From an uncultured Bacteroidales bacterium (lineage in GTDB: Bacteria > Bacteroidota > Bacteroidia > Bacteroidales > Paludibacteraceae), in the NCBI GenBank assembly GCA_902798015.1, contig CADBVL010000013.1, positions 147 through 64,146 of the forward strand: a DNA stretch of 64,000 bases. The letters run 5' to 3'. The notes under the pieces are model-generated. The model was not told the DNA's origin. It did no database searches and saw only the letters and a list, made by a program, of their open reading frames with translations. Positions 11,251-58,565 of the stretch are shown piece after piece. Every line of letters begins with the position of its first letter. The first letter of the stretch is position 1. Made by a program: the position numbers and the translations under genes.

Positions 11251-13650
11251 CTATAATCCCAAGTGAATACGGAAACGAATCGCCCATTGGACACTCGGCG
11301 TAATAGCCCAAGCGGAATAGAGATCGCAGATACGCAATATATTACCGATACCGACGCCCACCTCCGTATAAAGCATCGAACGTGGTGTGCCGTACTCCGC
11401 CTGGCTGTTATAGCCGTACGCTATCTTCGCTTCTACGAGTTCGCGCAGATGCAACCAGCGCACACCCGGAATGAGATTAAAGAGTACACCCATGCCGTTC
11501 CATTCCGTCTGCAATGTTACATACCGGTTAGCCATCATCTGATATCCGTGCAGGAAAGTGAAGCGGTAGGGATCATACGCATAGCCTTGGTTAGCATTCG
11601 CCTGCCATAAGAGCGTAGCCGGCACCCGTCCCATCAATACACCGGCCTGTAATGCATACGTCAGCGTGCCGCCCATACCGAGGTTTGCATGCTGCGTGAG
11701 CATCGCTCGCAGATGGAAGTATATCTTCGAATAGTTTGCGTCCGCCCAATGCCCGGCCTCTGCACCCAGATACAATACCGGATAACGGGATGAGTAAGCG
11801 TAGCGGCGCATGAAATAACCATCGTATTTCCGTTCACCCCAACTGAGGCGGGCGATCAGAGATAGCGACTGGTAGGAATATGGGCCTACCCCCGCCCCTC
11901 CCTGAAGGGAAGGGAGATTAAAATTCCAACCGGCGCGGATGTAGGCGTGTGTCTCTACATTCTTGGTCCAGTCGGCGAACCAATGGAATTGCAACTGACG
12001 CTGCCGGATTGCGGTATTGACGCATAAACTGTCGCGGAAAAGCGCTTGGAAAGCGTAAGCGGTGAAGTCGAAGTTTCCCCATCCCATGGAGTTCTCCCGC
12101 AGCATCCGATCGAAATCATCCACCTCCGACCAGACATACCGGTCGTTATACTCGAATTGCAGGATATTCTTCCGCTCCGTAGGCAGATTGACCGACACCC
12201 GGCCCATCCCTTTGAATTGACGGTCCCTGAAACCATAGCCCACTGAAGCCTCCAACGAGACCACTTTTGATAACTTCTCGTTGGTGCGGAAAGGCAGTCC
12301 GACATGCACACCTTCGTGCTGGTTCACCTGTAATATCTCCTCTATATGCCCGATATCTACCGGAGTGCCCGTAGGGATATAACCCGTCATGGCGATGGTG
12401 GCGAACCATTTGGCGACACGGATGATGGGCAGGCTGTCCAGTTTCGCGAAAGCGGAATCAGCTGAGAGAGAGCCTAACCCCGGCCCTTCCCTGAAAGGAA
12501 GGGAGATGGGGGATATGCTGTCGTTGATGGCTATGGAGTTGGCTTCCGGGGCGTGATTGGGATTGTGCAGAGCGGTGGTCAGCAGCACCGAAGGAAAGAC
12601 CGTACCGGCTTTCTCTGATTTGACGGAGAAATCGAGCAGGGTGGAGACCGTTTCTTCCGCAATAAGGCCATCCGGGGCGAGCGTCTGCGAGATATGGATG
12701 TCGTTCACGTAGTTGACGGCTACCTCCGGCGGTACATAGGCCTTGAAAGCACGCAACGCATACGTGGTGGTATCAATGATCATCTCGCCGTTAAACGTTG
12801 CGTAGAAGGGGTTTCTCGTGCGAAAGACAATTCGAACGAGCCTATCCCCAGCCCTTCCCTGAAAGGAAGGGAGACTATCCGGCGAATCATCGAGATAATA
12901 TCTATAGTACAGGTTTCCTCCCGATGCGAGGGGAGAGAGAAAGGCATGCCCCATGAGGCTGACCGATGGCGCATAGAGATTGAGGTTGCCTTCGCCGCCA
13001 AGTAATGCCGAATAATCCGTCTCGGACAGGATAAGGGCCTGTGTACGTTGGTCATTCGCAGGAATCATCTCTTGTCCCGCCATGCGGAAAGACTGCGTCT
13101 CACGGTAGAGCGGAAGGATGTAGGTGGAGTCTTCCTGCGCGATCATGCCTTCTTGCAGGCTGCGCCATAATGCACGCCTTAGATGACGACGGTTGATATG
13201 CGAGACATACAACGTCTGTTCGCGCTGCAGCACGGCGCTGTTCTCCGGATGCTTGGTGCGGTCGTTTGCTTCACGGTGCTCCCGTACCCGACGTAAGAGC
13301 TCCAGAGCCGGATTCTCGTTCGGCGCTACCACGATCTCCGTGAGCATCGCTGTCTTCTCCCGCATCGCGACTTGCAGACCCGCCATCGCGCCCGGATCGA
13401 TATCGAAACGCTGGGTGTAATAGCCTACAGCCGAGAAGACCAGTTGGCTCTTCGCCGTCATATCCACGCGCAACGCATAGTTACCATGCTCGTCTGAAGT
13501 AGTACCGATCTTCGTGCCCCGGAAATGGATGTTCACATTCGGTATAGCCTCACCGGTCGTCTCATTAACCACTTCGCCGACAATGATGGTCTCGACCGCC
13601 ATAATAGGCAGGGAGAGAATAGTGTACAATATGAAGAGTATTCGTTTCAT
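11251..13650 (-). CDS. CarboxypepD_reg-like domain + DUF5686 family protein
   Basis: Signal peptide, then IVGEVVNETTGEAIPNVNIHFRGTKIGTTSDEHGNY (carboxypeptidase-regulatory-like fold). The ~800 aa layout matches DUF5686 proteins. Confidence 0.65.
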   Translation of the reverse strand: MKRILFILYTILSLPIMAVETIIVGEVVNETTGEAIPNVNIHFRGTKIGTTSDEHGNYALRVDMTAKSQLVFSAVGYYTQRFDIDPGAMAGLQVAMREKTAMLTEIVVAPNENPALELLRRVREHREANDRTKHPENSAVLQREQTLYVSHINRRHLRRALWRSLQEGMIAQEDSTYILPLYRETQSFRMAGQEMIPANDQRTQALILSETDYSALLGGEGNLNLYAPSVSLMGHAFLSPLASGGNLYYRYYLDDSPDSLPSFQGRAGDRLVRIVFRTRNPFYATFNGEMIIDTTTYALRAFKAYVPPEVAVNYVNDIHISQTLAPDGLIAEETVSTLLDFSVKSEKAGTVFPSVLLTTALHNPNHAPEANSIAINDSISPISLPFREGPGLGSLSADSAFAKLDSLPIIRVAKWFATIAMTGYIPTGTPVDIGHIEEILQVNQHEGVHVGLPFRTNEKLSKVVSLEASVGYGFRDRQFKGMGRVSVNLPTERKNILQFEYNDRYVWSEVDDFDRMLRENSMGWGNFDFTAYAFQALFRDSLCVNTAIRQRQLQFHWFADWTKNVETHAYIRAGWNFNLPSLQGGAGVGPYSYQSLSLIARLSWGERKYDGYFMRRYAYSSRYPVLYLGAEAGHWADANYSKIYFHLRAMLTQHANLGMGGTLTYALQAGVLMGRVPATLLWQANANQGYAYDPYRFTFLHGYQMMANRYVTLQTEWNGMGVLFNLIPGVRWLHLRELVEAKIAYGYNSQAEYGTPRSMLYTEVGVGIGNILRICDLYSAWAITPSVQWAIRFRIHLGL
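11884..11916 (+). repeat. GC-rich hairpin element (GCCTACCCCCGCCCCTCCCTGAAGGGAAGGGAG), in frame in DUF5686 gene
   Basis: Arms CCCTCCCT / AGGGAAGGG. Translated on the minus strand as LPSLQGGAGVG. Confidence 0.85.
12472..12505 (+). repeat. GC-rich hairpin element, in frame in DUF5686 gene
   Basis: Sequence GCCTAACCCCGGCCCTTCCCTGAAAGGAAGGGAG. Translated as LPFREGPGLG. Confidence 0.85.
12840..12873 (+). repeat. GC-rich hairpin element, in frame in DUF5686 gene
   Basis: Sequence GCCTATCCCCAGCCCTTCCCTGAAAGGAAGGGAG. Translated as LPSFQGRAGDR. Confidence 0.85.
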
Positions 13651-13756
13651 TATAGGGCCCCGAAAATTTTAATTTTTGGGGAGAGCGGAGGCATCAGTCG
13701 CCTCACCGTTTAGCAGAGCGGTACGGTTTTTTGCGACCTGATTGCCGATCGCGTTT
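13651..13756 (+). repeat. ~105-nt structured repeat, copy A (candidate small RNA or REP-like element)
   Basis: About 80% identical to 42727..42832. It has three hairpins on the + strand, the last followed by TTTTTT. It overlaps the last ~29 codons of xerD and abuts the DUF5686 start codon. Confidence 0.7.
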
Positions 13757-17058: not shown

Positions 17059-17694
17059 TTAGTCAAAAACCTCCATTAATATCTCCAAAGAGCGGGGTGC
17101 CTCCCATGTCTCTACATGTTCTTCGAAATACGAACAGAGTTGACGCAAAGCCTCTTGGCGCGCTTTGCGGGTGGAGGGTAGCCTACCTCCAACTCTGCTC
17201 GATTCGACTGTCCACTGGACACTCTCCGTCTGAAGGGAAGATAGGGGATTGTTTTCATCAATAGCAAACCCTAATTTTGCGGCCAAACCGACCAGAAACT
17301 GCAGATGGAAGTTCTGCGGCTCTTCGCATCGGTCCAGTTCCTGCACTGCCTGAGCGATGAAGTCGAACATCGGCTCGTCCGTCATCGGGTGACGCAGTAC
17401 ATGGTAGAGCACTTCGCTCAAAAAGAGTGCGATGGCGTTTTTATAGGGGTCGGAGATGACGGGATTAGCGGTCAGGGGAACAGCTTCTTTCAGTGTTGGC
17501 GGTCTGGATGGAGTCTGGTCCGCAGTGATCTGAAGAAGGGTAAAAGGGGTGTACATCCCGATAGCGTGTTTGCGCCCCAGGCCATACACCATATAATTAA
17601 CGCGCCCGCCCGTACGCGTATAGGCGTGCAGCACGTGCGCTTTGTCCGAATGCGGCTGAAGTGACAGTACTATCGCGTCAGTCGTGTTTAACAT
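17059..17694 (-). CDS. recO: DNA repair protein RecO
   Basis: N-terminal OB-fold pattern (DAIVLS...SDK..VL..YT...G) and a helical C-terminal domain. The start was chosen at ATG 17694 (MLNTTD). Confidence 0.75.
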   Translation of the reverse strand: MLNTTDAIVLSLQPHSDKAHVLHAYTRTGGRVNYMVYGLGRKHAIGMYTPFTLLQITADQTPSRPPTLKEAVPLTANPVISDPYKNAIALFLSEVLYHVLRHPMTDEPMFDFIAQAVQELDRCEEPQNFHLQFLVGLAAKLGFAIDENNPLSSLQTESVQWTVESSRVGGRLPSTRKARQEALRQLCSYFEEHVETWEAPRSLEILMEVFD

Positions 17695-18589
17695 AGATGG
17701 AATCAATGGCGACACCATCGCTCATGCGACGAATCGTCAGTTGGCTGTTGGTCAGAACACCGTACACAGGGACGCTGTCGCATACTTCGCTGTGCAGTCT
17801 TTTTTTCTGTTTTTTTATTCTGCCGGCGGTATTAAGCATCACGAACGGCGTGCGGCGGGCATAGAGATGATCATGCCCGGCAATCACCAAATCGGCTTGG
17901 CTCAGGGCGTGGTGGAAAGTGCCGTAGATAGCGGGGTTGACGCGTCCCTTGGCAGCCGAGAGTACGGGATGATGCATTATCACCACCACCGCGCGGTCGC
18001 CCGCGCTGTACATTGCCTCGCGCAACCAGGTAAGCGTACGTGTCAGATAGACAACATGCGACAAAGGATTGGTGTCGATGGCGATGATGCGCATCTGCGG
18101 GATGTCGAGCCAATAACTTGCGCCCGGAACACCGACAGGCCCGTTAGCGGGGTGGAGGAAAGTCTCGTTCCATGCGGCCGATAGGGACTTATGGGCACCT
18201 TTGGTGTATTCGTGATTACCCGGACAAGCGATGACGGGCAGGCCGTTCAAGGCACTGTTGGTCCATTCGCGCAAAAGAAGTTGGCGGTAATATTCCTGTC
18301 CCCGCTCCATCCAGTCGCCGGCTTGCATCACAAGATCAGCATCCGGTACGCGTGCAGCCAGCGTGTCATAATCGGTCCGCGTAAGACGGCTATGGATGTC
18401 GCCGAGCACCAGAATCGTGGCGATGCTGTCGTTGTCTGCGTCCGGCGTATGGAACACTTCTTGCAGCGTGTCGCCCGTCCAATGCGGTTCAGCAGGAATG
18501 ACGAACCAAGCCTGCCAGCGGACGGCGCAGATGACTGCGCCGACCGCTAACAAAACGGCAAGGAGTGCTATGTAAACCCATTTACGCAT
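17678..18589 (-). CDS. Calcineurin-like metallophosphoesterase, membrane-anchored
   Basis: N-terminal TM helix. Motifs are LGDIHS, GDWMERG, GNHEY, MHHP and GHDHLY. Confidence 0.75.
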   Translation of the reverse strand: MRKWVYIALLAVLLAVGAVICAVRWQAWFVIPAEPHWTGDTLQEVFHTPDADNDSIATILVLGDIHSRLTRTDYDTLAARVPDADLVMQAGDWMERGQEYYRQLLLREWTNSALNGLPVIACPGNHEYTKGAHKSLSAAWNETFLHPANGPVGVPGASYWLDIPQMRIIAIDTNPLSHVVYLTRTLTWLREAMYSAGDRAVVVIMHHPVLSAAKGRVNPAIYGTFHHALSQADLVIAGHDHLYARRTPFVMLNTAGRIKKQKKRLHSEVCDSVPVYGVLTNSQLTIRRMSDGVAIDSIYVKHD

Positions 18590-19007: not shown

Positions 19008-19042
19008 CTTTCAACTTTCAACTTTCAACTTTCAACATTAAA
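19008..19042 (+). repeat. Period-7 tandem array CTTTCAA x4 + CATTAAA
   Basis: Read directly from the sequence. It fills the gap between the pgk stop (19044) and the DUF3127 start (19005). Confidence 0.9.
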
Positions 19043-19043
19043 C

Positions 19044-20294
19044 TTACTCTCCTTTAATAGCTGCTACACCCGGGAGGATCTTGCCTTCGATAGCCTCGAG
19101 GAGTGCACCTCCACCGGTAGAGATATACGATACCTGGTCTGCCAGACCGAATTTATTCACGCATGCTACAGAGTCGCCGCCGCCGATGAGCGAGAAAGCG
19201 CCGTTCTTCGTAGCTTCTGCAATCGCTTCGCCGATAGCACGGCTACCGCCGCAGAAGTTATCGAACTCGAATACGCCGGCAGGTCCGTTCCAGAGGATGG
19301 TCTTGGCGCCCTTGATGGCGTTGCGGAAGTTTTCTTGTGCCTTAGGACCTGCATCCATACCTTCCCAACCCTCGGGGATAGCATTCGACGGGAAGATCTT
19401 CTGGTTGGCGTCATTGCTGAAACTGTCGCCGCAGATAGCATCCGGAGCGAGAACGAGTTCTACGCCGTTCTTCTTCGCCAGTTCCTCTACGCCCAGCGCT
19501 ACATCGAGTTTGTCGAGTTCGACAATCGAGCCGCCGATTTCGCCGCCGTGTGCTTTGGCAAACGTATAGGTCATACCGCCGCAGAGGATCAGTTTGTCCA
19601 CTTTGCCGAGCAGGTTCTCGATGATGCCGATCTTCGAACTTACTTTCGATCCACCCATGATGGCTACGAACGGGCGCTTGATGTCGCCGAGCACAGCGTC
19701 AACAGCAGCTACCTCTTTCTCCATCAGGAAACCTAACATCTTATGGTCTGCATCGAAATAGTCTGCGATGACAGCGGTCGAAGCATGTTTGCGGTGAGCC
19801 GTTCCGAAAGCATCCATCACATAGCAGTCTGCGTATGAAGCGAGAATCTTGGCGAACTCTTTCTGACGCGCCTTCATCTCTTTCTTGGCAGTCTCGTAAG
19901 CCGGATCTTCTTTCTCGATACCTACCGGTTTGCCTTCCTCTTCCGGATAGAAACGAAGGTTCTCCAGCATCAGTACCTCGCCCGGTTTGAGTGCAGCCGC
20001 CTTGTCTTGCGCTTTCGCGCAGTCCTCTGCGAACTGAACGGGACGACCCAGTGCTGCAGCTACTGCGTCCACGATTTGGCTCAGGCTGAACTTAGCCTGT
20101 ACTTTGCCTTTGGGTTTGCCCATGTGGCTCATGATGATCAGTGCGCCGCCCTCATCGAGAATATGCTTGAGGGTGGGTAACGCACCGCGGATACGCGTGT
20201 CGTCCGTGATCTTGCCGTTCTCATCGAGAGGCACATTGAAATCGACACGTACAATCGCCTTCTTACCGGCGAATTGGAAATCTTTGATAGTCAT
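19044..20294 (-). CDS. pgk: Phosphoglycerate kinase
   Basis: Full-length 416 aa with [16 protein letters not shown] and GGGDS motifs. Confidence 0.95.
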
Positions 20295-20339
20295 AATGTG
20301 TTATATTTAGTTTGTTAATAAATTTGCTTGCCCGTTAAA

Positions 20340-20367
20340 CTTTCAACTTTCAACCTTCAATTTCACT
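20340..20367 (+). repeat. Period-7 tandem array CTTTCAA CTTTCAA CCTTCAA TTTCACT
   Basis: Read directly from the sequence. It lies upstream of pgk and overlaps the stop codon of the 20363 gene. Confidence 0.85.
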
Positions 20368-24125: not shown

Positions 24126-24146
24126 CTTTCAACTTTCAACTTTAAA
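24126..24146 (+). repeat. Period-7 tandem array CTTTCAA CTTTCAA CTTTAAA
   Basis: Read directly from the sequence. It spans the ddl stop codon and the leader of the polyprenyl synthase gene. Confidence 0.8.
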
Positions 24147-24288
24147 AGAACTTGTTCTCGATAATATCCGTCAGCACATCCTTGATGTCCAGTCCGGCTG
24201 CGCGAACCTGCTGGGGAATGAAACTGGTCGGCGTCATTCCGGGAGTGGTATTTACCTCTAAAAGGTTAATTTGTACATTCAAATTGTC

Positions 24289-24319
24289 CTCCTTTCCTTC
24301 AGGGAGGGTCGGGGTAGGC
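24289..24319 (-). repeat. GC-rich hairpin element, in frame in ddl
   Basis: Plus-strand sequence CTCCTTTCCTTCAGGGAGGGTCGGGGTAGGC. Translated in ddl as KPTPTLPEGKED. Confidence 0.85.
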
Positions 24320-24954
24320 TTCTCTGTTATAATCCAGTCCACGCGGATGATACCTTGTGCGCCGATGATGTCGTACAGACGCAGCGTCTCGGCCTGAATC
24401 TTGTCGCGTACGGCATCGGGAATACGGGCGGGCGTGATCTCATCCACTTCGCCTTTGTACTTGGCGTTGTAGTCGAAGAACTCATTATGCGTCACTACCT
24501 CCGTGATGGGGAAAGCAACGGCTTTGTCTTTGGTCTTATAGACGCCGCAGGTCACCTCAGTGCCTTTCATGAACGACTCGCAGATCACCTCGTCGCCCTC
24601 TTGGAACGCACGCTCGATGGCGGGATAAACCTCTTCTACCGTCTTCACTTTTGTGCAACCGAACGAAGAACCGCCGATATTCGATTTGATGAAGCAGGGC
24701 AGTCCCAGCGTCTCGGCGATCTTCGGCGCATTCGGCCATTTCTGTCCGGCGCGGAGCATCAGGCTGTTCGCGATATGGAAACCGAAATAGGAGAGGTAAT
24801 GATTGCAGGCGTATTTGTTGAACGTCAGCGCTGCGGCTAACACTCCGCAGCAGGAGTAAGGCATACCGATCATATCGAGGTATCCCTGCAGAATGCCGTT
24901 CTCGCCCGGCGTACCGTGTATCGTGATATACGCGAAATCGAAGGTGTGCTTCAC

Positions 24955-24976
24955 GCCCCCGCGCGTGGGGGTAGGC
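24955..24976 (-). repeat. Degenerate hairpin element (GCCCCCGCGCGTGGGGGTAGGC) at the ddl frame break
   Basis: It shares the GGGGGTAGGC end with the hairpin family. Its core is a CCCCCGCG/CGTGGGGG palindrome. Confidence 0.6.
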
Positions 24977-25147
24977 TACCCAGTTCTTGCCGTCAAAAAC
25001 CACGATGGTGCAATCGTAGCGCTCCTTGTCCATAAAGGAGTAGATACCAGCTGCCGAACGGAGCGACACATCGTGTTCGCTACTGTCTCCGCCGGCAATA
25101 ATAGCTATGTTTCGTTTCATTTTTCGCCTTAAAATGCAATTTGGCTG

Positions 25148-25155
25148 CAAATTTA
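25148..25155 (-). promoter_or_regulatory. Bacteroidetes -7 box TAAATTTG for ddl
   Basis: TAnnTTTG, 28 nt upstream of ATG 25120. Confidence 0.5.
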
Positions 25156-39370: not shown

Positions 39371-40765
39371 ATGATTGACGAACGCGAGATACTTCGCAGG
39401 CGCGATATGCGCGATGTTTTCACCTTTACCATCGATCCCGCCGATGCCAAGGACTTCGATGACGCAATATCGTTTGAGAAGGAGCCTACCCCCGACCCCT
39501 CCCTAAATGGAGGGGAGGTATATCGCATAGGCGTTCACATCGCGGATGTCTCCCATTATGTCAAACCCGGTACGAAAACCGATGACGACGCCTATAAACG
39601 CGGCACGTCCACCTATCTCGTGGACCGCGTCATCCCCATGCTGCCCGAAGAACTGTGCAACGACCTGTGCTCGCTGCGGCCCGGAGAAGACAAACTATGT
39701 ATGTCCGTCGTCTTCCTTATGGACGCGGACGCACGCGTTCTTAAATATAAAATATGCCGCACCGTCATCCGCTCCGACGCCCGCCTCAATTACGACGAAG
39801 TACAGGACGTCATAAGCGCAAATCAGACTAACGAGACACTATCGAGAGAGAATCGAGACGGGGTAAACACAGAGGCAACAGCTATGCAAACCGAGGCTAT
39901 TCTTACCTTAAATGCTCTTGCATCCAAACTCCGTGCCGAACGACTTGCCAACGGGGCGCTTGCCATCGAGCAGGACGAGATGCGGTTCCGTCTGGACGAG
40001 CATTACCATCCGATAGACATCTATTTCGAGTCGCCCAACGAAGCCCATCATCTGATAGAAGAGTTCATGCTGCTTGCTAACCGTACCGTCGCCAAAGCCG
40101 TCGGCTCCGGACGTCCGTTCGTCTATCGCGTGCATGACCTGCCCGACAACGAGAAACTGGACGACCTCAAGAAATTCAAGAAACGGATGGGAACGCGCAT
40201 ACCGCAGCAGACAATCGATCTGCTCACCATCCGCGCACAAGCCAAAGCCGTCTATTCAACCTATAACATCGGCCACTACGGACTCGCCTTCTCCCATTAT
40301 ACCCATTTCACTTCGCCTATCCGTCGCTACCCCGACCTGATGGTGCACCGCCTCGTGGAGAAATATATCCTTACCGGCAAACCCTGTCCGCTTACCCGCG
40401 CCGAACTCGAAGAGAAATGTGAGCATTGCTCGGCGTGTGAACAGGCAGCCGCGCAAGCCGAACGCGACTCCATCAAACTGTTTCAGACCATGTGGATGGC
40501 GGATCATATCGGAGAGATACTGCCCGGACATATCACCGGCGTCACCGATTTCGGACTCTTCGTCCAACTCGATGACTCGCGGTGCGAAGGACTCGTCCAT
40601 ATCTCCAAAGTCGGCTTCCCCGGAGAGACGTGGAAATACGACGAAAAAAACTACCGCCTCATCTGCGCCGAGAACGGTATAACCCACACTTTGGGTGACG
40701 CCGTGCGCGTCAAAGTTGTCAAAACAGACGTAAATAGAAGCCAAATTGACTTTGAGTTGGTATAA
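39371..40765 (+). CDS. rnr: RNase R / RNase II-family exoribonuclease, RNB + S1 domains only (no N-terminal cold-shock domains)
   Basis: The RNB motifs FTIDPADAKDFDDAIS and GVHIADVSHYV start within the first 60 aa. The C-terminal S1-like region reads GHITGVTDFGLFVQL. Confidence 0.8.
   Translation: MIDEREILRRRDMRDVFTFTIDPADAKDFDDAISFEKEPTPDPSLNGGEVYRIGVHIADVSHYVKPGTKTDDDAYKRGTSTYLVDRVIPMLPEELCNDLCSLRPGEDKLCMSVVFLMDADARVLKYKICRTVIRSDARLNYDEVQDVISANQTNETLSRENRDGVNTEATAMQTEAILTLNALASKLRAERLANGALAIEQDEMRFRLDEHYHPIDIYFESPNEAHHLIEEFMLLANRTVAKAVGSGRPFVYRVHDLPDNEKLDDLKKFKKRMGTRIPQQTIDLLTIRAQAKAVYSTYNIGHYGLAFSHYTHFTSPIRRYPDLMVHRLVEKYILTGKPCPLTRAELEEKCEHCSACEQAAAQAERDSIKLFQTMWMADHIGEILPGHITGVTDFGLFVQLDDSRCEGLVHISKVGFPGETWKYDEKNYRLICAENGITHTLGDAVRVKVVKTDVNRSQIDFELV
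39484..39517 (+). repeat. GC-rich hairpin element, in frame in rnr
   Basis: Sequence GCCTACCCCCGACCCCTCCCTAAATGGAGGGGAG. Translated as EPTPDPSLNGGE between DDAISFEK and VYRIGVHIADV. Confidence 0.85.
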
Positions 40766-42726: not shown

Positions 42727-42832
42727 TATGGGGCCCCCGCAAATTTTAATTTGTGGGGAGAGCGGAGGCACAAGTCGTCCCATCGATTTAGCGGAGCGGT
42801 ATCGATTTTACGATCTTGTTGCCGAACGCGAA
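42727..42832 (+). repeat. ~105-nt structured repeat, copy B (candidate small RNA or REP-like element)
   Basis: About 80% identical to 13651..13756. The hairpin stems differ by compensatory changes while the 13-nt loop TTAGC(A/G)GAGCGGT is conserved. Confidence 0.7.
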
Positions 42833-42849: not shown

Positions 42850-42948
42850 TCTACGTAATCCCTGCTGCGCGCAGGGCGCTCAGCCCAGCCGTTTCCGCTA
42901 AACTACTCGCTCAAACAAGCTTGGCTCGTTTTTTAGCGAAAACGTCTG

Positions 42949-43022
42949 TGATCCGGTCGGGATTCGAACCCGAGACCCACAGCTTAGAAGGCTGTTGCTC
43001 TATCCAGCTGAGCTACCGGACC
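42949..43022 (-). tRNA. tRNA-Arg (anticodon TCT)
   Basis: Hand-folded cloverleaf: GGTCCGG TA GCTC AGCTGGATA GAGC A ACAGC CTTCTAA GCTGT GGGTC TCGGG TTCGAAT CCCGA CCGGATC A. No CCA is encoded. Confidence 0.9.
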
Positions 43023-45800: not shown

Positions 45801-45842
45801 AATTATCAATTATCAATTATCAATTATCAATCATCAATTATA
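45801..45842 (+). repeat. Period-7 tandem array AATTATC x4, AATCATC, AATTATA
   Basis: Read directly from the sequence. It lies 6 nt upstream of the clpC ATG and covers the last codons and stop of the 45834 gene. Confidence 0.9.
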
Positions 45843-47783: not shown

Positions 47784-47790
47784 TCACCCG

Positions 47791-47824
47791 TTCCCCTCCT
47801 TTTAGGGAGGGGGTAGGGGTAGGC
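47791..47824 (-). repeat. GC-rich hairpin element, intergenic (between GH57 stop and porin-like start)
   Basis: Sequence TTCCCCTCCTTTTAGGGAGGGGGTAGGGGTAGGC. Confidence 0.85.
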
Positions 47825-47834
47825 TTATTATTTC

Positions 47835-49110: not shown

Positions 49111-49145
49111 AATTATCAATTATAAATTATCAATTATCAATTCTT
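49111..49145 (+). repeat. Period-7 tandem array AATTATC AATTATA AATTATC AATTATC AATTCTT
   Basis: Read directly from the sequence. It lies 10 nt upstream of the GH57 ATG and overlaps the GT4 stop. Confidence 0.9.
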
Positions 49146-50364: not shown

Positions 50365-52352
50365 AATTCTGCCTCCTCGCTTTCAACTTTCGACTTTAAA
50401 CTCTCAACTTCTGCCTTTTGATATCTTTTTAAGGTATCCAGCAGACTGATGACTGCCGCTACACTCGGCGCACTACTCATGCCGCCATGTCCCTTGTAGG
50501 GTGGGTTGCCGTCATAGCACTCGTTCAGCGTACCGATGGTCAGTTCGTCCATCTCAGCCTCAAAACCGATCAGCAGCCGTTCCATAAAGCTGGCGCCGCT
50601 GTACTTGTAGATGTTCATGTATGCGCGCGAATAAGCCGTGATGGTCGAGGGCCATACAACGCCGTTATGCAGACTCCTGTCGCGCTCTATCGCACCGCCG
50701 TAGCAGGTCGGACGGTAACTACCGCTCTTCGGACTCAGACTGCGCAGACCCTTCGGCGTCAGCAATTCCTTCGTGCATATATCCACTACCGCCTTCTGCT
50801 GCTTGCGGTCCAGCGGACTGTAAGGCAGACCTACCGCCCAGATCATGTTCGGGCGTACCTCGCGGTTCTGGTAGTTGTCAATCACGTAGTCATTTAGATA
50901 CAGCCCGTTCCAGAATGTCTTCACAAACGCATCCTTGCTGATCTCCGCCTGGTACTCCATCAGGTCGGCACTCGTCTCTTTGCCCATCTCGCGCAGCATC
51001 TCAGCCGTGAAGCGCATTGCGTTGTACCATAGCGCGTTGATCTCTACGACATAACCTGTACGCGGGGTGATAGGCCATCCGTTCTCCGTGGCGTTCATCC
51101 ATGTGGCGGGACGCTGTGTGCCATCCACCCATAACAAACCGTTCTGGTGCAACTTCGCACGCGGATGGTTCTGCTTGCGGTACCAGTTGATGATATCCAG
51201 ACAGAGCTGACCGTACAGGTCGGCTGCCTCGCGGACCGTATATTTATGCGCGTATTTTTGGCATGCGCGAATGAACCACAATAGCACATCCGGCTCGTCC
51301 ATTCCCGTCATCTTCAGGTCATGGATGCGGCCGTTCATGAAGTTCAGTATCTCTTCGATGGCCGTCTTGTTGATGATAGCATCCCAATATTCCGGACGGT
51401 CGATGTCCAACGTACAACTGGCGACACTGAAGAATGTGGAGCGTGCGTCGGGACCGAACCATGGGAAACCGGCTAAGAGATAACACTTGTCTCCTTCGCG
51501 TTTGTAGAACTGACTCGCGCTGTTCTTCAGCGTGGAGAACATGTCCTCGCGACGGATGCGGCGCTCCAACTCTTTCTTCCATACGGTCTTCAACTGCGCA
51601 GTCTTGCATTCCGTCACGCCGCCGGCGAAAATAACACTCTCGCCTTTCTTCATCGGCAACTCAAAATAACCCGGAACCAACAGATCCTCTTTGTAGGCAT
51701 ATCCGCGTTCGCGCTCCTTGCGGTACTCGATGTCCTTGTACCACTGCGGGTCGTGATGATACTCAACCGCCTTGCTGAACTGCATGTACAGGTTCGGGAA
51801 ACCCGGATACATGCGGTTGAAACGACCGTTCTCGCAGTCGTTCATGTCTGCGTTGGCCAGCGGGTTCTCATGCGTCAACTCATTCACGCTGCGGAACGCA
51901 AGGAACGGACGGAAACGAAGCGTCGTCGGACTACCGCTCTCCAGCAGCGTGTAGCGAATCAGCACACGCGGCTCAAAACTGACGAGCATGCGCTCCTTCT
52001 GAAGCACCATCGCACCTACACGGTAGGTCGTGCGAGAGATGACGTCGCAGTCAAACTCGCGGATGTACTTGTGCCCGTTCGGGCTGAAATGATTCTCTCC
52101 GTACTCGTGCAGACCCAGGTTGAACTCTGCTCCGTGCTGGATCACCGTCTCGTCCAGCGAACTGAGCAACACGAAGTTGTCATCGCTGATATGCGGCAAC
52201 GGCATCACCAACTGACCGTGGTACTTGCGCGTGTTGCAATCGACCAAAGTGGTCGAGTTGTACACACCGGCACGGTTGGTTCGAATCATCTCCTTCTGAA
52301 GCGAACGCTCCAGATTAACAAGTACTGTCTTGTCAAAATTAAGATAACTCAT
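50361..52352 (-). CDS. Glycogen debranching enzyme (GDE N-terminal + amylo-alpha-1,6-glucosidase domains)
   Basis: Motifs are NTRKYHGLL-like (NTRKYHGQLV), GFPWFG.D.R and NGWP. There is an ATGA overlap with the GT4 start. Confidence 0.85.
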   Translation of the reverse strand: MSYLNFDKTVLVNLERSLQKEMIRTNRAGVYNSTTLVDCNTRKYHGQLVMPLPHISDDNFVLLSSLDETVIQHGAEFNLGLHEYGENHFSPNGHKYIREFDCDVISRTTYRVGAMVLQKERMLVSFEPRVLIRYTLLESGSPTTLRFRPFLAFRSVNELTHENPLANADMNDCENGRFNRMYPGFPNLYMQFSKAVEYHHDPQWYKDIEYRKERERGYAYKEDLLVPGYFELPMKKGESVIFAGGVTECKTAQLKTVWKKELERRIRREDMFSTLKNSASQFYKREGDKCYLLAGFPWFGPDARSTFFSVASCTLDIDRPEYWDAIINKTAIEEILNFMNGRIHDLKMTGMDEPDVLLWFIRACQKYAHKYTVREAADLYGQLCLDIINWYRKQNHPRAKLHQNGLLWVDGTQRPATWMNATENGWPITPRTGYVVEINALWYNAMRFTAEMLREMGKETSADLMEYQAEISKDAFVKTFWNGLYLNDYVIDNYQNREVRPNMIWAVGLPYSPLDRKQQKAVVDICTKELLTPKGLRSLSPKSGSYRPTCYGGAIERDRSLHNGVVWPSTITAYSRAYMNIYKYSGASFMERLLIGFEAEMDELTIGTLNECYDGNPPYKGHGGMSSAPSVAAVISLLDTLKRYQKAEVESLKSKVESEEAEL
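50380..50414 (+). repeat. Period-7 tandem array CTTTCAA CTTTCGA CTTTAAA CTCTCAA CTTCTGC inside the debranching-enzyme 3' end
   Basis: Read directly from the sequence. Translated as ..KAEVESLKSKVESEEAEL at the protein C-terminus. Confidence 0.85.
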
Positions 52353-52375: not shown

Positions 52376-53539
52376 TTAGTTGTATTTGCCTTCAAACTTT
52401 GTTTGCGCGTCGGCCACGAACTGCTTGATACGCTGCTCTTCGCCTTTCTTGCAAACCAACAAAACTCCCTTCTGTTCGGCGATGATCATGTCGTTCACGC
52501 CTTGCACTACGGCTAACTTGCCCGGCTCCAGCGTCACGACATTGCCTTCCGCCTCGTAGAACAGCGCGTCTGAATGCAGACTCACGTTGTGCGCCTCGTC
52601 TTTCTCGCTCAACTCGTACAGACTGCCCCAGGTGCCTAAGTCGCTCCAGCCGAAACTCGACGGCAGTACGAATACATTGTCCGCCTTCTCCATAATGCCG
52701 TAGTCGATGGAGATGTTCGGGCATTTGGGGAAGATATGCTCGATGAACTCCTCCTCTTTGTCGGTACCCATCAGCAACTCGCCTTCACGGAAACGGTCCG
52801 CCACTTCCGGCAACAGATATCGGAATGCTTCACTGATGGTTTGCAGGTTCCAAATGAAGATACCGCTGTTCCAAAGGAAATCACCGCTCTGCAAGAACAC
52901 TTTCGCCATCTCCAGGTTCGGCTTCTCCGTAAACGTCTTCACTGGATAAATGTCTCTAAACTCTAAACTCTCAACTCTCAACTTGTCCAATGCGTTTTCA
53001 ACGAATTGGATATACCCATACCCCGTCTCCGGCCGCGTGGGTTGCATGCCGAGCGTCGCTATCGCCTTGTTCTTGCTTACAAAATCAAACGCCTTCAATA
53101 TCGTCTGACGGAATTTGTCTTCTTCCAATATCAGATGGTCGCTCGCCGCTACGACAATATTCGCCTGCATCTCCGGCCGGCTCCAGTCCTGGTTCGCGGC
53201 CGTGAGGCCCGCGCGACGCAAGCAGAGCGCGCGTATATGTGCGGTCGCGTATGCGATACAGGGCGCCGTATTTCGGCGAGCCGGCTCGCATAATATCTGC
53301 TTCTCCGACAAATCCGGAACCTGCTCCAAAATCAACTCCTTATACGCCACATTCGTGACGATAAACACATTCTCAATCGGCACAATCGGACGAAAACGAT
53401 CTACCGTCATCTGCAGCAAACTGCGACCCGTGCCGAAGAAATCCAAAAACTGTTTCGGCTTCTCTGCACGACTGTACGGCCAGAAACGGCTGCCTACACC
53501 GCCCGCCATAATGACGCAATAATTGTTGTTCTTCTTCAT
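52376..53539 (-). CDS. Mannose-1-phosphate guanylyltransferase-like nucleotidyltransferase
   Basis: ATG 53539 gives MKKNNNYCVIMAGGVGSRFWPYSR..KPKQF. Later motifs are RNTAPCIAYA and SDH.I. Confidence 0.8.
   Translation of the reverse strand: MKKNNNYCVIMAGGVGSRFWPYSRAEKPKQFLDFFGTGRSLLQMTVDRFRPIVPIENVFIVTNVAYKELILEQVPDLSEKQILCEPARRNTAPCIAYATAHIRALCLRRAGLTAANQDWSRPEMQANIVVAASDHLILEEDKFRQTILKAFDFVSKNKAIATLGMQPTRPETGYGYIQFVENALDKLRVESLEFRDIYPVKTFTEKPNLEMAKVFLQSGDFLWNSGIFIWNLQTISEAFRYLLPEVADRFREGELLMGTDKEEEFIEHIFPKCPNISIDYGIMEKADNVFVLPSSFGWSDLGTWGSLYELSEKDEAHNVSLHSDALFYEAEGNVVTLEPGKLAVVQGVNDMIIAEQKGVLLVCKKGEEQRIKQFVADAQTKFEGKYN
52954..52988 (+). repeat. Period-7 tandem array CTCTAAA CTCTAAA CTCTCAA CTCTCAA CTTGTCC inside the nucleotidyltransferase CDS
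   Basis: Read directly from the sequence. Translated as DKLRVESLEFRD. Confidence 0.85.
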
Positions 53540-53580
53540 AAATATAACGTGTGTTTTTAATGGTAATCCCAAAAATCGTG

Positions 53581-53665: not shown

Positions 53666-53700
53666 CTTTCAACTTTCAACTTTCAACTTTCAACTTTATT
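53666..53700 (+). repeat. Period-7 tandem array CTTTCAA x4 + CTTTATT
   Basis: Read directly from the sequence, in the divergent intergenic region immediately 5' of the gldD -7 box. Confidence 0.9.
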
Positions 53701-53703
53701 TAC

Positions 53704-53711
53704 TACCTTTG
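53704..53711 (+). promoter_or_regulatory. Bacteroidetes -7 box TACCTTTG for gldD
   Basis: TAnnTTTG, 20 nt upstream of ATG 53731. Confidence 0.55.
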
Positions 53712-53730
53712 TGCCGTAATTTGGAGTATA

Positions 53731-54339
53731 ATGGACTTTAGGCAAAAAATATTACCTCTTTTGTGGCTGGTCATGGCGATGGTTTCCTGCGGACGGGCGA
53801 CTGCGCCGAAACCGTATGGTTATTACCGTATCACGGTGCCCGACACCGCATATATGCCGTTTGAGGACTATCCTCTTTCAACTTTCAACCTTCAACTTTC
53901 AACTTACCCATATACTTTCGCTCTCTCGCAAAATGCGGTGGTGCAGCCCCGCACGGACGTGGAAGAACCCTATTGGATCAACCTCTATTATCCGGCGCTG
54001 GACGCTACCATCCATTGCTCCTATAAACCCGTTCGGAACAACCTGCGCGAACTGACCAACGATGCGCTCGAGTTCGTGTACCGCAACGCCTCTTTCGCGA
54101 ACGCTATCCCCGAACGCGAATATTCTCATCCCGAGGCGCAGGTGTACGGCGTGCTCTTCGACCTGGAGGGAAACACCGCTTCGTCCTGCCAGTTCTTTGT
54201 GACCGACTCCGTGAACCATTTCTTCCGCGCATCGGTCTATTGCAACTGCCCGCCGAATGCCGACTCCCTTGCACCCGTATATGAGTACCTCCGCAAAGAT
54301 GTCATCAAAATGGTAGAGACGTTTAACTGGGAAGAATAA
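53731..54339 (+). CDS. gldD: Gliding-motility/T9SS-associated lipoprotein GldD
   Basis: Lipoprotein signal MAMVSC. Motifs are PKPYGYYRI, CSYKPV..NL..L..D and QFFVTDS..HFFRASVY...PNADSL.PV. Confidence 0.65.
   Translation: MDFRQKILPLLWLVMAMVSCGRATAPKPYGYYRITVPDTAYMPFEDYPLSTFNLQLSTYPYTFALSQNAVVQPRTDVEEPYWINLYYPALDATIHCSYKPVRNNLRELTNDALEFVYRNASFANAIPEREYSHPEAQVYGVLFDLEGNTASSCQFFVTDSVNHFFRASVYCNCPPNADSLAPVYEYLRKDVIKMVETFNWEE
53875..53909 (+). repeat. Period-7 tandem array CTTTCAA CTTTCAA CCTTCAA CTTTCAA CTTACCC inside gldD
   Basis: Read directly from the sequence. Translated as PLSTFNLQLSTYP. Confidence 0.9.
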
Positions 54340-54344
54340 ATTGC

Positions 54345-55532
54345 ATGTTTTTTTCTTTTAAAAATAGAAGTTTGGCCATTTTGTTGGACCCGGAGAAAGC
54401 GGACCTGTCGCGCCTTTCTTTTACCGAAGAGTGCCATCCCGACTATATCTTCGTCGGCGGTTCTACCGGTGGTGACACGACGCCTTTCGTCCGAGCCCTC
54501 AAAGAGAAGATAAAACTCTCCTGCCCTTCAGGGGAGGATGGGAGAGAGCTGCCCATCATTCTTTTTCCCGGAAATTCGTCCCAGTTTACCCCCGAAGCAG
54601 ATGGTATTTTGTTCCTCTCTCTGCTCTCCGGTCGTAACCCGGAATTTCTTGTGGATCAGCAAGTTAAGGCGGCGCGTGCTATCCGCGAGTCGCAGATAAA
54701 TTTCGTCCCAACGGCATATGTCCTCATTGACGGCGGAGTGGTCACTTCTACGATGCGTGTTTCTCATACCCAACCGCTCGATCCGGCGGACATAGACACT
54801 ATCGTGGACACCTGTATCGCGGCCGAACTGATGGGTAAGAAAGCCATCTACCTGGAGGCGGGCAGCGGAGCGAAGACTCCTGTCTCGGCAGACATCATTC
54901 GGGCGGTTCGCGCGAAGACTTCCGTTACTCTCATCGTCGGCGGAGGAATACGGACGCAGGAAGCAATGCAGGCCGCATACAATGCCGGAGCTGATGTGGT
55001 GGTCATCGGCAACTATTTCGAGACTCATCCCGAGGCACTGAAAGACTTTTGCCGTAATACAGGGGTGACGTCATTATGTAATAACGACAGTGCCTCGTTG
55101 CATGAAGACGAGCGTTTCATGCGCATCGCTCTCTGCGAAGCAGAGAAAGCTCTGGCAGCAGACGAGATTCCAATCGGTTGCGTCATCGTCAGCCGGAACC
55201 AGATCATCGGACGCGGACATAACCTCACGGAGACCCTTGCTGACGTCACCGCGCACGCAGAGATACAGGCCATCACCGCCGCCTCGCAGACGCTCGGTGG
55301 CAAGTACCTTCCGGACACCACACTTTATGTCACTGTGGAACCCTGTCCCATGTGCGCAGGCGCTATCGGATGGGCGCAGGTAAACCGTATCGTGTACGGC
55401 GCACCCGATCCCAAACGGGGATACTCCGTCTATGCGCCACGCACCTTCCACCCCAAAGCAACCGTCACGGCAGGGGTGCTCGAAGCGGAATGCCGTGAAC
55501 TCATACAAGCATTTTTTAAGAACAAACGATAA
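54345..55532 (+). CDS. Fusion ORF: geranylgeranylglyceryl-phosphate-synthase-like (PcrB/GGGPS) domain + tRNA adenosine(34) deaminase TadA domain
   Basis: The N-terminal ~245 aa carry a TIM-barrel GGGPS pattern (FVGGS, ILFPG, YLEAGSGA, VGGGIR). The C-terminal ~150 aa carry HAEIQAI and PCPMCAGA deaminase zinc motifs. Confidence 0.7.
   Translation: MFFSFKNRSLAILLDPEKADLSRLSFTEECHPDYIFVGGSTGGDTTPFVRALKEKIKLSCPSGEDGRELPIILFPGNSSQFTPEADGILFLSLLSGRNPEFLVDQQVKAARAIRESQINFVPTAYVLIDGGVVTSTMRVSHTQPLDPADIDTIVDTCIAAELMGKKAIYLEAGSGAKTPVSADIIRAVRAKTSVTLIVGGGIRTQEAMQAAYNAGADVVVIGNYFETHPEALKDFCRNTGVTSLCNNDSASLHEDERFMRIALCEAEKALAADEIPIGCVIVSRNQIIGRGHNLTETLADVTAHAEIQAITAASQTLGGKYLPDTTLYVTVEPCPMCAGAIGWAQVNRIVYGAPDPKRGYSVYAPRTFHPKATVTAGVLEAECRELIQAFFKNKR
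54528..54546 (-). repeat. Degenerate hairpin-element remnant in frame in the GGGPS domain
   Basis: CTCCTGCCCTTCAGGGGAGGATGGGAGAG resembles the hairpin core. Translated as LSCPSGEDGRE just before the conserved ILFPG. Confidence 0.45.
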
Positions 55533-57433: not shown

Positions 57434-57469
57434 TTCGTCATTACATAATCCCGTAATCCCGAAAAAAAA

Positions 57470-57504
57470 TAATTTTTAATTTTTAATTCTTAATTTTTAA
57501 TTGA
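57470..57504 (+). repeat. Period-7 tandem array TAATTTT TAATTTT TAATTCT TAATTTT TAATTGA
   Basis: Read directly from the sequence. The first 28 nt are identical to 58563..58590. The last unit supplies the TAA stop and TTG start context of dusB. Confidence 0.9.
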
Positions 57505-58565
57505 ACAACTTTCCTCTATATCTTGCCCCGATGGAGGACGTCACCGATCCGGCCTTCCGTGCGTTGTGCAAACGCTACGGAGCCGATCGTGTCTATACCG
57601 AATTCGTCAATGCCGACGCACTCGTACGCGACATCGCTTCCACGACGCGCAAACTCACCATCCATGATGCCGAGCGGCCGGTGGCAATCCAGATCTACGG
57701 GCGTGACCCCGAGTCGATGGCAGGCGCCGCGCGTATCGTCGAGCAGGCACATCCTGACTTCATCGACATCAATTTCGGCTGTCCCGTGAAGAAAGTGGCA
57801 GGCAAAGGTGCCGGAGCGGGACTGCTGCGTGATGTGCCGAAGATGCTGGATATCACCCGCGCTGTCGTCAATGCCGTCCATACACCCGTTACTGTCAAGA
57901 CCCGCCTCGGATGGGATGATAAGGACCTCATTCCCAGAGTAAATCCGCTGGGCCTCAATACTCCCTTCCCTTTAGGGGAGGGGCGGGGTGAGGCTTCTTT
58001 CTTCATCGTTGATCTCGCGGAAGCCTTGCAGGACTGCGGCATCGCCGAACTCGCCATTCACGGCCGTACACGTTCGCAGATGTACCGCGGCGAAGCGGAT
58101 TGGACACTCATCGGTGAGGTGAAGAACAACCCGCGCATGCGCATACCTGTCATAGGGAACGGGGACGTATGCACACCCGAGCGCGTAAAAGAGTGCTTCG
58201 ACCGCTACGGTGTGGATGCCGTCATGGTTGGTCGCGCTACCTTCGGCGCACCCTGGCTCTTCGCAGAGATGAAGAATTATCTGAATCCTATCACCCCTCC
58301 TTTCAGGGAGGGGACGGGGGTAGGCTTCCCTCGCACTATGTCCGACAAAGTCGCCGTGCTCAAAGAACACGTCCTTGCTTCCATACAGTGGTGCGGCAAT
58401 GACGAGCGCAAAGGAATCGTACATTCGCGGCGCCATTTTGCGGCTTCGCCTGTCTTCAAAGGACTCGATAACTTCAAGCAGACACGCATCGCCCTTCTCC
58501 GCGCGGAAACAGTAGATGAGGTCTTCACTATCATGGACGAGATAGTAGAAAAATGGGGCGATTAA
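57501..58565 (+). CDS. dusB: tRNA-dihydrouridine synthase (DusB-like), TTG start
   Basis: Motifs are LAPMEDVTDPAFR, INFGCPV.KV, VKTRLGW, HGRT and GNGD. An in-frame TAA lies immediately upstream, so TTG 57501 is the only start that keeps the conserved N-terminus. Confidence 0.85.
   Translation: MNNFPLYLAPMEDVTDPAFRALCKRYGADRVYTEFVNADALVRDIASTTRKLTIHDAERPVAIQIYGRDPESMAGAARIVEQAHPDFIDINFGCPVKKVAGKGAGAGLLRDVPKMLDITRAVVNAVHTPVTVKTRLGWDDKDLIPRVNPLGLNTPFPLGEGRGEASFFIVDLAEALQDCGIAELAIHGRTRSQMYRGEADWTLIGEVKNNPRMRIPVIGNGDVCTPERVKECFDRYGVDAVMVGRATFGAPWLFAEMKNYLNPITPPFREGTGVGFPRTMSDKVAVLKEHVLASIQWCGNDERKGIVHSRRHFAASPVFKGLDNFKQTRIALLRAETVDEVFTIMDEIVEKWGD
57961..57994 (-). repeat. GC-rich hairpin element, in frame in dusB
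   Basis: Sequence CTCCCTTCCCTTTAGGGGAGGGGCGGGGTGAGGC. Translated as TPFPLGEGRGEA. Confidence 0.85.
58292..58325 (-). repeat. GC-rich hairpin element, in frame in dusB
   Basis: Sequence CACCCCTCCTTTCAGGGAGGGGACGGGGGTAGGC. Translated as TPPFREGTGVG. Confidence 0.85.

Follow-up and report, generated by a model that had tools for sequence, protein, structure and literature searches.

A 35-nt palindromic interspersed repeat lies in frame within conserved genes of rumen and gut Bacteroidales

We describe a short palindromic interspersed repeat that colonises coding sequences of Bacteroidales, found in a 64,000-nt stretch of DNA (the window) from an uncultured rumen organism whose nearest named relatives are Paludibacteraceae (GenBank assembly GCA_902798015.1, contig CADBVL010000013.1, positions 147 to 64,146). 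The repeat unit is GC-rich, about 35 nt long and has sharp ends. Seven of its eight full copies in the window lie in frame within genes, three in a gene encoding a DUF5686 protein, one in the D-Ala-D-Ala ligase gene ddl, one in a gene of the RNase R/II family and two in the tRNA-dihydrouridine synthase gene dusB, and the eighth is intergenic (Table 1). Full copies in coding sequences always leave the host frame open, and do so in both orientations and several phases. We consider it probable that the element is a selfish, non-autonomous interspersed repeat, behaving like the repetitive extragenic palindromes (REPs) and the Rickettsia palindromic elements (RPEs) and surviving in genes where selection tolerates its copies.

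Anatomy of the repeat unit

The eight full copies align readily with one another and follow the order AGCCTACCCCC-nn-CCCCTCCCT-GAA-GGGAAGGGAG, comprising a conserved A, the C-rich tail GCCTACCCCC, a 2-nt variable spacer, an imperfect 8-bp hairpin with arms CCCCTCCC and GGGAAGGG and a TGAA or TAAA loop, and a final GAG. The motif stands far above chance: the search pattern GCCTNNCCCN{1,5}CCYYCCCTRAANGGRRGG, derived from the aligned full copies, has 7 matches in the window against 0 in 100 dinucleotide-preserving shuffles, and the 9-mer GCCTACCCC, with at most one mismatch, occurs 22 times where 8.6 occurrences are expected.

The boundaries were defined with 145 pattern copies from the window and loci L002-L119, 142 of which have 15 nt on each side and were used for position profiles. 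Position -1, preceding GCCT, is A in 128 of the 142, and the 31-nt core is followed by G, A/G and G at positions +1 to +3. Beyond the unit the information content is zero on the 3' side, with only a weak purine bias on the 5' side at -2 to -5. The two ends, AGCCTAC... and ...GGGAG, show no inverted repetition of each other, and neither the position profiles nor the 8-mer flanks contain a target-site duplication, showing only the A at -1, the purine-rich 5' flank and the 3' GAG.

The imperfect palindrome described in an earlier note on this DNA is confirmed, although the fold it implies is weak. Stem positions 17-24 and 29-36 of the alignment (A2) are paired in 87% of cells, and pair 20:33 is U-A in 43, C-G in 28 and unpaired in 35 of 106 copies, a compensatory change in an imperfect stem. 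The commonest variants carry one C.A mismatch, and as single-stranded DNA the hairpin reaches -4 to -7 kcal/mol, the commonest variant folding no better than shuffled sequence; the hairpin is real, yet imperfect and weak. The C-rich tail is conserved to the same degree as the stem.

Variants of tail and stem are tightly linked: the tail AC goes with the stem arm CCCTCCC in 88 of 89 copies, CT or CA with CCTCCCC in 46 of 46, and AA or AT with CCTTCCC in 7 of 7. This linkage defines discrete subfamilies, as expected under master-copy amplification, and a more distant subfamily without GCCTAC, AACCCCTCCCCTCCCCTCCCCTCAAGGGAGGGAG, is present in the relative L207. A triplex, with the tail as third strand on the hairpin, was also considered and dropped, as the tail mirrors the 5' arm only poorly and subfamily descent explains the tail-arm linkage equally well.

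Copies in the window and their host genes

The earlier note had listed ten sites, eight full and two degenerate. A covariance model (R1), built from 106 distinct copies (8 from the window and 98 from other genomes) and run on the window with filters off, returned the same ten, eight as strong matches (46-57 bits) and two as weak ones (16.7 bits, E=0.002, and 12.9 bits, E=0.027); everything beyond them had E >1 and consisted of ~5-bit fragments or opposite-strand echoes of copies. Pfam supports the note's host assignments (DUF5686 three times, ddl twice, rnr, GGGPS-TadA, and dusB twice). Of the two weak sites, that at 54528 is a decayed copy in the PcrB-TadA open reading frame (ORF), and that at 24955 is the 10-nt stump of a full in-frame copy, seen in the sister assembly L200. 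Nor was the list complete, a further decayed and split copy being probable in recO. The intergenic copy occupies the 51-nt spacer between GH57 and Porin_10, 10 nt past the GH57 stop and 7 nt ahead of a GTG start, and dusB site 2 is the linker from the TIM barrel to the C-terminal helical domain. The ORF with the decayed copy (54345-55532) fuses PcrB (GGGPS-like) and a TadA deaminase in 395 aa, while the syntenic TadA of L207 stands alone with 138 aa.

Table 1. Copies of the element, host genes and heptamer arrays in the window.
Feature	Position	Strand	R1 span	Remarks
Full copy, 30-nt core, A-type, in DUF5686	11884..11916	+	11881-11918	opposite to gene; read NLPSLQGGAGVG; 47.3 bits
Full copy, AA-tail/CCCTTCCC subfamily, in DUF5686 linker	12471..12505	+	12469-12507	read ISLPFREGPGLG; 56.5 bits
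Full copy, AT-tail/CCCTTCCC subfamily, in DUF5686	12839..12873	+	12837-12875	read SLPSFQGRAGDRL; 55.5 bits
Probable old, decayed, split copy in recO	17178..17250 (about)	+		4.8 bits only
Full, slightly degenerate copy in ddl	24289..24320	-	24286-24322	gene's strand; read KPTPTLPEGKE; 46.4 bits
Stump (AGCCTACCCCC) of second ddl copy	24966..24977	-	24947-24979	truncated by 82-nt deletion; 12.9 bits
Full copy in RNB/S1 (RNase R/II family) gene	39483..39517	+	39481-39519	gene's strand; read EPTPDPSLNGGE; 52.7 bits
Full intergenic copy	47791..47825	-	47789-47827	sense to GH57 and Porin_10; 50.1 bits
Decayed copy in PcrB(GGGPS)-TadA fusion ORF	54515..54552	-		SGEDGREL; 16.7 bits, E=0.002
Full copy, CA-tail subfamily, dusB site 1	57961..57995	-	57959-57997	opposite to gene; read TPFPLGEGRGEA; 55.7 bits
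Full copy, A-type, dusB site 2 linker	58292..58326	-	58290-58328	read ITPPFREGTGVG; 55.8 bits
Host gene, CarboxypepD_reg + DUF5686 protein	11251..13650	-		799 aa; Pfam
Host gene, D-Ala-D-Ala ligase (ddl)	24142..25150	-		two ORFs in window, split by 82-nt deletion; Pfam
Host gene, RNB + S1 exoribonuclease	39371..40765	+		464 aa; Pfam
Host gene, tRNA-dihydrouridine synthase (dusB)	57501..58565	+		Pfam
Heptamer arrays in spacers	19008-19045, 20338-20365, 24126-24143, 45801-45841, 49111-49142			
Heptamer arrays in spacers	50380-50410, 52954-52983, 53666-53697, 57470-57502, 58562-58597			

The note had also held that every coding copy but that at 24955 keeps its frame open, and this stands, the break at 24955 coming from an 82-nt deletion. 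Over 13 kb on one side of the ddl stump the sister assembly (L200, ENA ERZ28614202 scaffold_234) matches the window at 100% identity, and at the position of the stump it carries a full copy (13020-13058, 47.5 bits) in an unbroken reading frame that extends to the contig end (AYPQPLPKGMGV / ...KNWVAYPQPLPKGMGVEEYFATSESCPIDKNDFSFTRGGVKHTFDFAYITIHG...). The 82 nt missing from the window (L200 13034-13115) start right after GCCTACCCCC, at the C5 tract in the element copy, and end before GCGCGGGGG; the window junction reads CCCCC-ACGCGC-GGGGG. The sole ddl gene seen in the window is therefore frameshifted by the deletion and not by insertion of the element, and the normal ddl holds two in-frame copies. 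The deletion could be a population variant or an assembly error. A second difference lies in the GT5 glycogen synthase gene (49144-50364, -), where the window has at 49509 42 nt (14 codons, in frame) fewer than L001 (9551-9591), from that same sister scaffold; the absent residues, TEMIDLVAKRGIAD, fall within the glycosyltransferase domain, and the sister assembly is otherwise identical.

Insertion sites in the host proteins

Absence of the inserted residues from orthologues, which the earlier note had stated for ddl and RNase R, is borne out by alignments to structures in the PDB, by close relatives and by distant dusB orthologues. The RNase R structures 8cdu (B. subtilis) and 5xgu (E. coli) have 7-8 residues fewer between DDA..K and GVHIADV, and against several Ddl structures there is an 11-14-residue gap immediately ahead of E(V/I)NTxPG. 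In E. coli DusB (6ei9) the loop at site 1 is ~24 residues shorter, site 2 comes after HYLD at the junction of barrel and helical domain, and the T. maritima Dus structure likewise lacks the inserted residues. The net gain relative to homologues is ~7-15 residues per insert and so does not always fall within the 10-14 residues of the earlier note. The element peptides, searched as a concatenated query, had no match among PDB chains.

Relatives at 80-95% identity without inserts exist as well, for instance at dusB site 2 and in DUF5686. The 120 closest dusB homologues (80-94% identity) vary in length from 329 to 422 residues. At site 2, 36 of them are empty (AEMK-GLPAPQSM), 31 have the element, read as PPFREGxGVG in one frame or PPLRGGxGRG in another, ~30 carry microsatellite-like repeats and 22 a repeat with an 18-nt period; at site 1, ~72 carry the element, in three frames, and only one is empty. 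More distant dusB orthologues (61-82% identity; 80 metagenome loci) have the short loops GWDxx-NKVIVEL and KHYLETGEELPPLSFDW, the ancestral state. For DUF5686, most of 120 relatives carry RAGWQAGYAYQS where the window has RAGWNFNLPSLQGGAGVGPYSYQS; at the 11884 copy most orthologues read GWQAGYAYQS, and at the 12840 copy they vary or are empty.

The inserts fall between conserved blocks of the solved RNase R, Ddl and Dus homologues. An AlphaFold2 model of the window's DusB (mean predicted local distance difference test score, pLDDT, 72; predicted template modelling score 0.74) has pLDDT <50 and no secondary structure at residues 127-156, which include site 1, and places site 2 in a coil between helices 242-251 and 270-287, with a dip in pLDDT below 50 at residues 259-263. 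The insertion points are thus predicted to be surface loops or linkers.

Distribution and placement beyond the window

When one genome for each GTDB species was scanned for exact matches to the pattern, at least 118 stretches contained the element, nearly all from rumen, gut or faecal Bacteroidales; the locus statistics below refer to the matches listed, as 8-kb loci, together with the window. Carriers among the matches listed belong to Paludibacteraceae, Prevotellaceae, Bacteroidaceae and Sodaliphilus; among them are two cultured isolates, Prevotella pectinovora P4-76 and Prevotellaceae bacterium HUN156. IMG/VR viral contigs rarely contain the element (4 matches). One locus from a Sphingomonadales metagenome-assembled genome (MAG; L010 2336-2441) has two very similar elements in inverted arrangement, GCCTCACCCCAATCCCTCCCCTGAAGGGGAGGGG and a partner ~35 nt away, from which the architecture may reach beyond Bacteroidales in a form like that of REP doublets forming hairpins (REPINs).

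Long ORFs, defined as open for at least 40 codons on both sides, span 69 of the 113 copies away from locus ends, against 72% for random positions in the same loci, so that genes are not avoided. Pfam searches with the 62 host ORFs give 135 families, including GlmS, four RecQ helicases, LigA, MetK, LeuRS, MetH, chorismate synthase, GH3, GH92 and nonribosomal peptide synthetase modules, and in P. pectinovora a single UDP-glucose/GDP-mannose dehydrogenase gene holds two copies. In these unrelated conserved genes the element occurs in both orientations and in five of the six frames, bearing out and extending the earlier statement of more than one frame. Each of the five gives its own type of peptide (AYPQPLPEGKG, KPTPxPSLKGRE, SLPFREGxGVG, PFPSGEGRGEA and LPSLQGGxGGR; an example spanning an element junction is ...NPITPPFREGTGVGFPR...), so the conserved object is the DNA and not the peptide. 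Orientation relative to the host ORF is balanced (36:32 among 68 copies, first count), and only 1 of 68 ORF copies uses the frame in which the loop reads TGA or TAA, in line with the note's observation that frames with stop codons are not used. None of the 69 copies inside ORFs has a 32-nt core, against 5 of the 44 outside, as would fit a filter on frame if the canonical insert is ~36 nt long.

Intergenic copies favour the ends of genes. Seventeen begin 1-12 nt past the same-strand stop codon of a long ORF (TAA in 13) and 2 abut a convergent ORF; in HUN156 (L058 297-3598) three successive genes each end in TAA, two bases and the element. Close pairs are few, with 3 convergent and 6 direct among the 145 copies.

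Turnover at shared sites

Comparison with L206, a syntenic relative with 95.4% identity to the window over 22 kb, makes turnover visible between genomes only ~5% apart. The copies at 11884 and 12840 are present in L206 and 100% identical over 70 nt, and the copy at 12472 is absent, that DUF5686 linker site holding an 8-mer repeat instead. The probable old copy in recO (17059-17718, -) still matches the consensus at ~74% in L206; in the window, 30 nt inserted in frame at the loop (GACGGAGAGTGTCCAGTGGACAGTCGAATC, gene strand) and missing from L206 divide it in two. Shared identical, lineage-specific and decayed copies together indicate that copies are gained, long kept and then eroded.

At dusB the same sites hold different subfamilies. 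At site 1 the window has the CA-type, L121 and L123 have the A-type, and L207 has the type lacking GCCTAC. In L207, both dusB copies and one intergenic copy share the genome's own AACCCCTCCCC...CTCAAGGGAGGG type. In other lineages the same loops or spacers hold heptamer or 8-mer microsatellites or arrays of CGGTCTnnCAG, and the 'empty' dusB and intergenic sites of relatives are filled with other repeats.

Tandem heptamers, (CTTTCAA)n, (AATTATC)n, (TAATTTT)n and (CTCTAAA)n, occupy most short spacers between co-directional genes of the window. The GH57-porin spacer has a heptamer array in L207 and the hairpin element in the window, and the GT5-GH57 spacer the reverse. In gldD (53731-54339, +), encoding the GldD lipoprotein, a (CTTTCAA)n array lies in frame at 53875-53905 (PLSTFNLQLSTY), and the same array type, read LSTLNSQ or PNPLTSN, occupies dusB and DUF5686 loops of relatives. 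A second dispersed class, arrays with an 18-nt period and the core CGGTCTnnCAG, is absent from the window; in dusB of relatives (L121, L123, L125-L129, L133, L134 and L142) it lies in frame at sites 1 and 2 and at N-termini, read RSVSEAVCQ.., GLTAERSYS.. or SGLSGEAG.

How the copies may have arisen

If the element is, as we think probable, a selfish repeat tolerated in genes, copies would land, or get copied, regardless of gene boundaries, and selection would purge every copy that breaks a gene. Those that persist in genes are in frame, stop-free and in loops or interdomain linkers, and would be translated as Pro/Gly-rich stretches of ~12 residues with a sequence set by the frame; intergenic copies sit mostly right after stop codons in sense orientation, like REPs. 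Copies arise, last and decay, and the family has spread through rumen and gut Bacteroidales genomes. We infer that the copies are inserted by an enzyme acting in trans. By analogy, a hairpin-recognising HUH/Y1 transposase working on single strands, of the REP-associated tyrosine transposase (RAYT) or IS200/IS605 kind, might provide this step, and is the best-fitting, if tentative, candidate because the element combines an asymmetric tail with a hairpin and has neither terminal inverted repeats nor a target duplication. Y1_Tnp (PF01797) was not among the neighbouring genes returned by four gene-neighbourhood searches.

Several findings weigh against a selfish repeat spread by insertion. The 35-nt unit is not a multiple of three, and 29-nt cores are also present in ORFs. 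For the element we found neither a transposase nor terminal inverted repeats nor a duplicated target site, and a regular-expression search for ORFs with the HUH...Y..NP motifs found none in 1.24 Mb of loci, which are 8-kb fragments and not whole genomes. The 22-kb alignment with L206 contains no clean junction between filled and empty sites, its sole lineage-specific copy (12472) lying in a rearranged, hypervariable linker. Finally, both dusB sites hold three subfamilies in different lineages in the same orientation and register, which random insertion followed by a filter does not predict and which points to target preference or gene conversion: either there are preferred targets, perhaps chosen through the A-rich 5' flank, or existing copies may be overwritten by conversion.

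Rather than being selfish, the element could be primarily a functional nucleic-acid structure (a 3' UTR hairpin, or a sequence prone to form a G-quadruplex or i-motif) serving mRNA stabilisation, 3'-end formation or protein binding, with the genic copies as tolerated by-products. The sense bias of intergenic copies just past stop codons (17 against 2), the three-gene series of HUN156 and a tail conserved as strongly as the stem all suit such a role. The strand opposite the pyrimidine-rich tail and arm is moreover prone to form G-quadruplexes: |G4Hunter| reaches at least 1.5 at 7 places in the window, 5 of which are element copies, and the L207 subfamily reads G4-A-G4-A-G4-A-G4. Against this, the orientations are balanced inside genes, the hairpin is weak and mismatched in its commonest variants, there is no U-tract, and an Rfam scan of the window at gathering thresholds matched only a tRNA-Arg and no family for the element. 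A function at some sites would also leave the arrival in dozens of unrelated genes unexplained, and we regard this explanation as unlikely.

A broader possibility, which we hold to be rather doubtful, is that in rumen and gut Bacteroidales an active process with a preference for certain sites keeps filling the same permissive loops of essential proteins, and the same short spacers between genes, with short repeats of several classes, namely the 35-nt element with its tendency to form hairpins or G-quadruplexes, the 7-8-nt microsatellite arrays and the 18-nt-period CGGTCTnnCAG arrays. An enzyme or repair pathway that is as yet undescribed would drive it. If true, this would be more than another selfish repeat, namely a general and so far unrecognised way in which protein length evolves in a dominant phylum of the gut.

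Recombination instead of transposition, by short-patch conversion or by uptake of motif-bearing DNA, a molecular drive resembling that of uptake sequences, that writes the dominant subfamily into existing permissive sites, would account for the subfamily exchange at orthologous dusB sites in unchanged orientation and register, for the single type shared by the copies of L207, for the perfect identity over 70 nt of the two copies held in common with L206, and for near-identity of the element across several Bacteroidales families. Conversion cannot, however, make a new copy, and with orthologues 7-15 residues shorter, insertion events would still be needed; 35 nt is also very short for homologous exchange. 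The motif is also rare in viral contigs, and these Bacteroidales are not known to have competence or an uptake bias. As a replacement for insertion, recombination therefore seems to us quite unlikely.

The peptides are Pro/Gly-rich and lie in loops, so that a linker or recognition motif recruited repeatedly might be what is selected, but the same DNA gives unrelated peptides in five frames and two orientations, a usage that already contradicts this idea, ~40% of copies are non-coding and unrelated repeats fill the same loops in relatives, making selection for the peptide very improbable. An assembly or sequencing artefact can practically be dismissed: although the window's two deletions relative to the sister assembly mean that its assembly or population cannot be called free of errors, an independent assembly (L001/L200) has the copies at 100% identity, and they recur in a 95% relative from another sample (L206), across many unrelated MAG projects and in both cultured isolates, always in frame in real genes.

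Comparison with known repeat families

The selfish-repeat reading places the element beside RPEs, in-frame palindromic repeats of unrelated housekeeping genes that are tolerated in loops (Ogata et al. 2000, as cited in PMC10969869 and PMC3733652). The likeness that the earlier note proposed extends to a multi-copy interspersed palindrome, in frame in unrelated conserved ORFs, at loop sites and missing from orthologues. It does not extend to size, sequence or terminal tag: RPE families of Rickettsiales measure ~100-150 bp, the classic RPE-1 being ~150 bp long, or are short and CGTC-tagged, as are RPE-4 and RPE-6, which end in CGTC (PMC3733652), whereas the present element has 35 nt, a C-rich tail, no CGTC end and no sequence relation to them. 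RPE hosts are obligate intracellular Alphaproteobacteria with reduced genomes, and those of the present element are free-living gut Bacteroidales of several families with genomes of normal size. The comparison with RPEs therefore holds for behaviour only.

With REPs and REPINs the element shares an imperfect GC-rich hairpin, 20-40 nt in size and bordered on one side by a single-stranded 'foot' that is conserved, the lack of terminal inverted repeats and target duplications, and intergenic copies just downstream of ORFs. REPs and the ends of IS200/IS605 are processed as single strands by Y1 HUH transposases, and Y1 subclass 2.6, mostly from Bacteroidetes, is flanked by 'atypical' structures without GTAG (PMC6006769); GTAG repeats are not reported for Bacteroidetes in PMC3733652. 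The GT[AG]G that defines REPs, 0-2 nt 5' of the hairpin foot (PMC6006769), is missing from the element. On its hairpin strand the 5' tail AGCCTACCCCC has CTAC 6-8 nt from the foot, with GTAG on the opposite strand 3' of the hairpin, and the L207 subfamily has neither CTAC nor GTAG. REPs are predominantly extragenic and often form inverted doublets, whereas the element is mostly intragenic (69/113) with just the 3 convergent pairs mentioned above, and no RAYT was found in the element-bearing loci (8-kb fragments, 1.24 Mb). In-frame intragenic REPs are known from Opitutus terrae, Thauera and some tnpA-REP genes (Di Nocera et al. 2013, PMC3733652; Quentin et al. 2018, PMC6006769), and the intragenic REPs catalogued by Di Nocera et al. 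include cases in Rickettsia conorii. The accessible part of the REP tables of PMC6006769 holds no sequence matching the element.

MITEs, or miniature inverted-repeat transposable elements, likewise belong to the small non-autonomous repeats, but they measure 70-300 bp and have the terminal inverted repeats and target duplications that the 35-nt element lacks. Short genic motifs that occur in several frames and concentrate in tolerant parts of proteins are also known as the uptake sequences (USS/DUS) of Pasteurellaceae and Neisseriaceae. These differ in arising by substitution with length unchanged, whereas the host proteins of the element are longer than their orthologues. Among MITEs, BrickBuilt/MITE239 of P. 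gingivalis is reported as strictly intergenic, and QMITE1 of Coxiella and the enterobacterial repetitive intergenic consensus (ERIC) form in-frame fusions (PMC10969869). The same 2024 review of prokaryotic MITEs gives only intergenic Porphyromonas elements for the phylum and treats RPEs as exceptional for their in-frame insertion (PMC10969869).

As the earlier note had supposed, the literature we searched contains no description of such an element for Bacteroidales, and a literature lookup with 9-10-mers of the element returned primers only. What is new in this short palindromic interspersed repeat is the phylum, the high intragenic frequency and the spread over several families.

Other features of the window

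A repeat of ~100 nt with 84-86% identity between its copies and no Rfam match occurs at 13655-13750, where it comprises the 3' end of a xerD-like integrase gene and a GGGCCCCG...TGGGG hairpin, and at 42732-42830, between the tRNA-Arg (42948-43022) and a sigma-70 gene. At the right end of the window, 63238-63824 within the ORF 61156-63732 (-) forms an internal tandem duplication with a 318-nt period and 83-93% identity.

Significance

In-frame palindromic repeats have so far been seen mainly as a Rickettsia curiosity, to which scattered intragenic REPs can be added. Here the same behaviour appears at large scale in Bacteroidales of gut and rumen, which are free-living and ecologically dominant, and it affects core enzymes such as Ddl, RNase R, DusB, GlmS, RecQ, LigA, MetK and LeuRS. 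For annotation and metagenomics, the element brings length variants of marker proteins, spurious Pro/Gly-rich peptides, assembler breakpoints and deletion hot spots, the ddl frameshift being an example. Microsatellites at the same sites hint at a common mechanism of insertion or repair. The cultured Prevotella carriers offer a tractable system for studying how selfish DNA enters proteins, how far loops tolerate it, and what moves REP-like hairpins that carry no tag.

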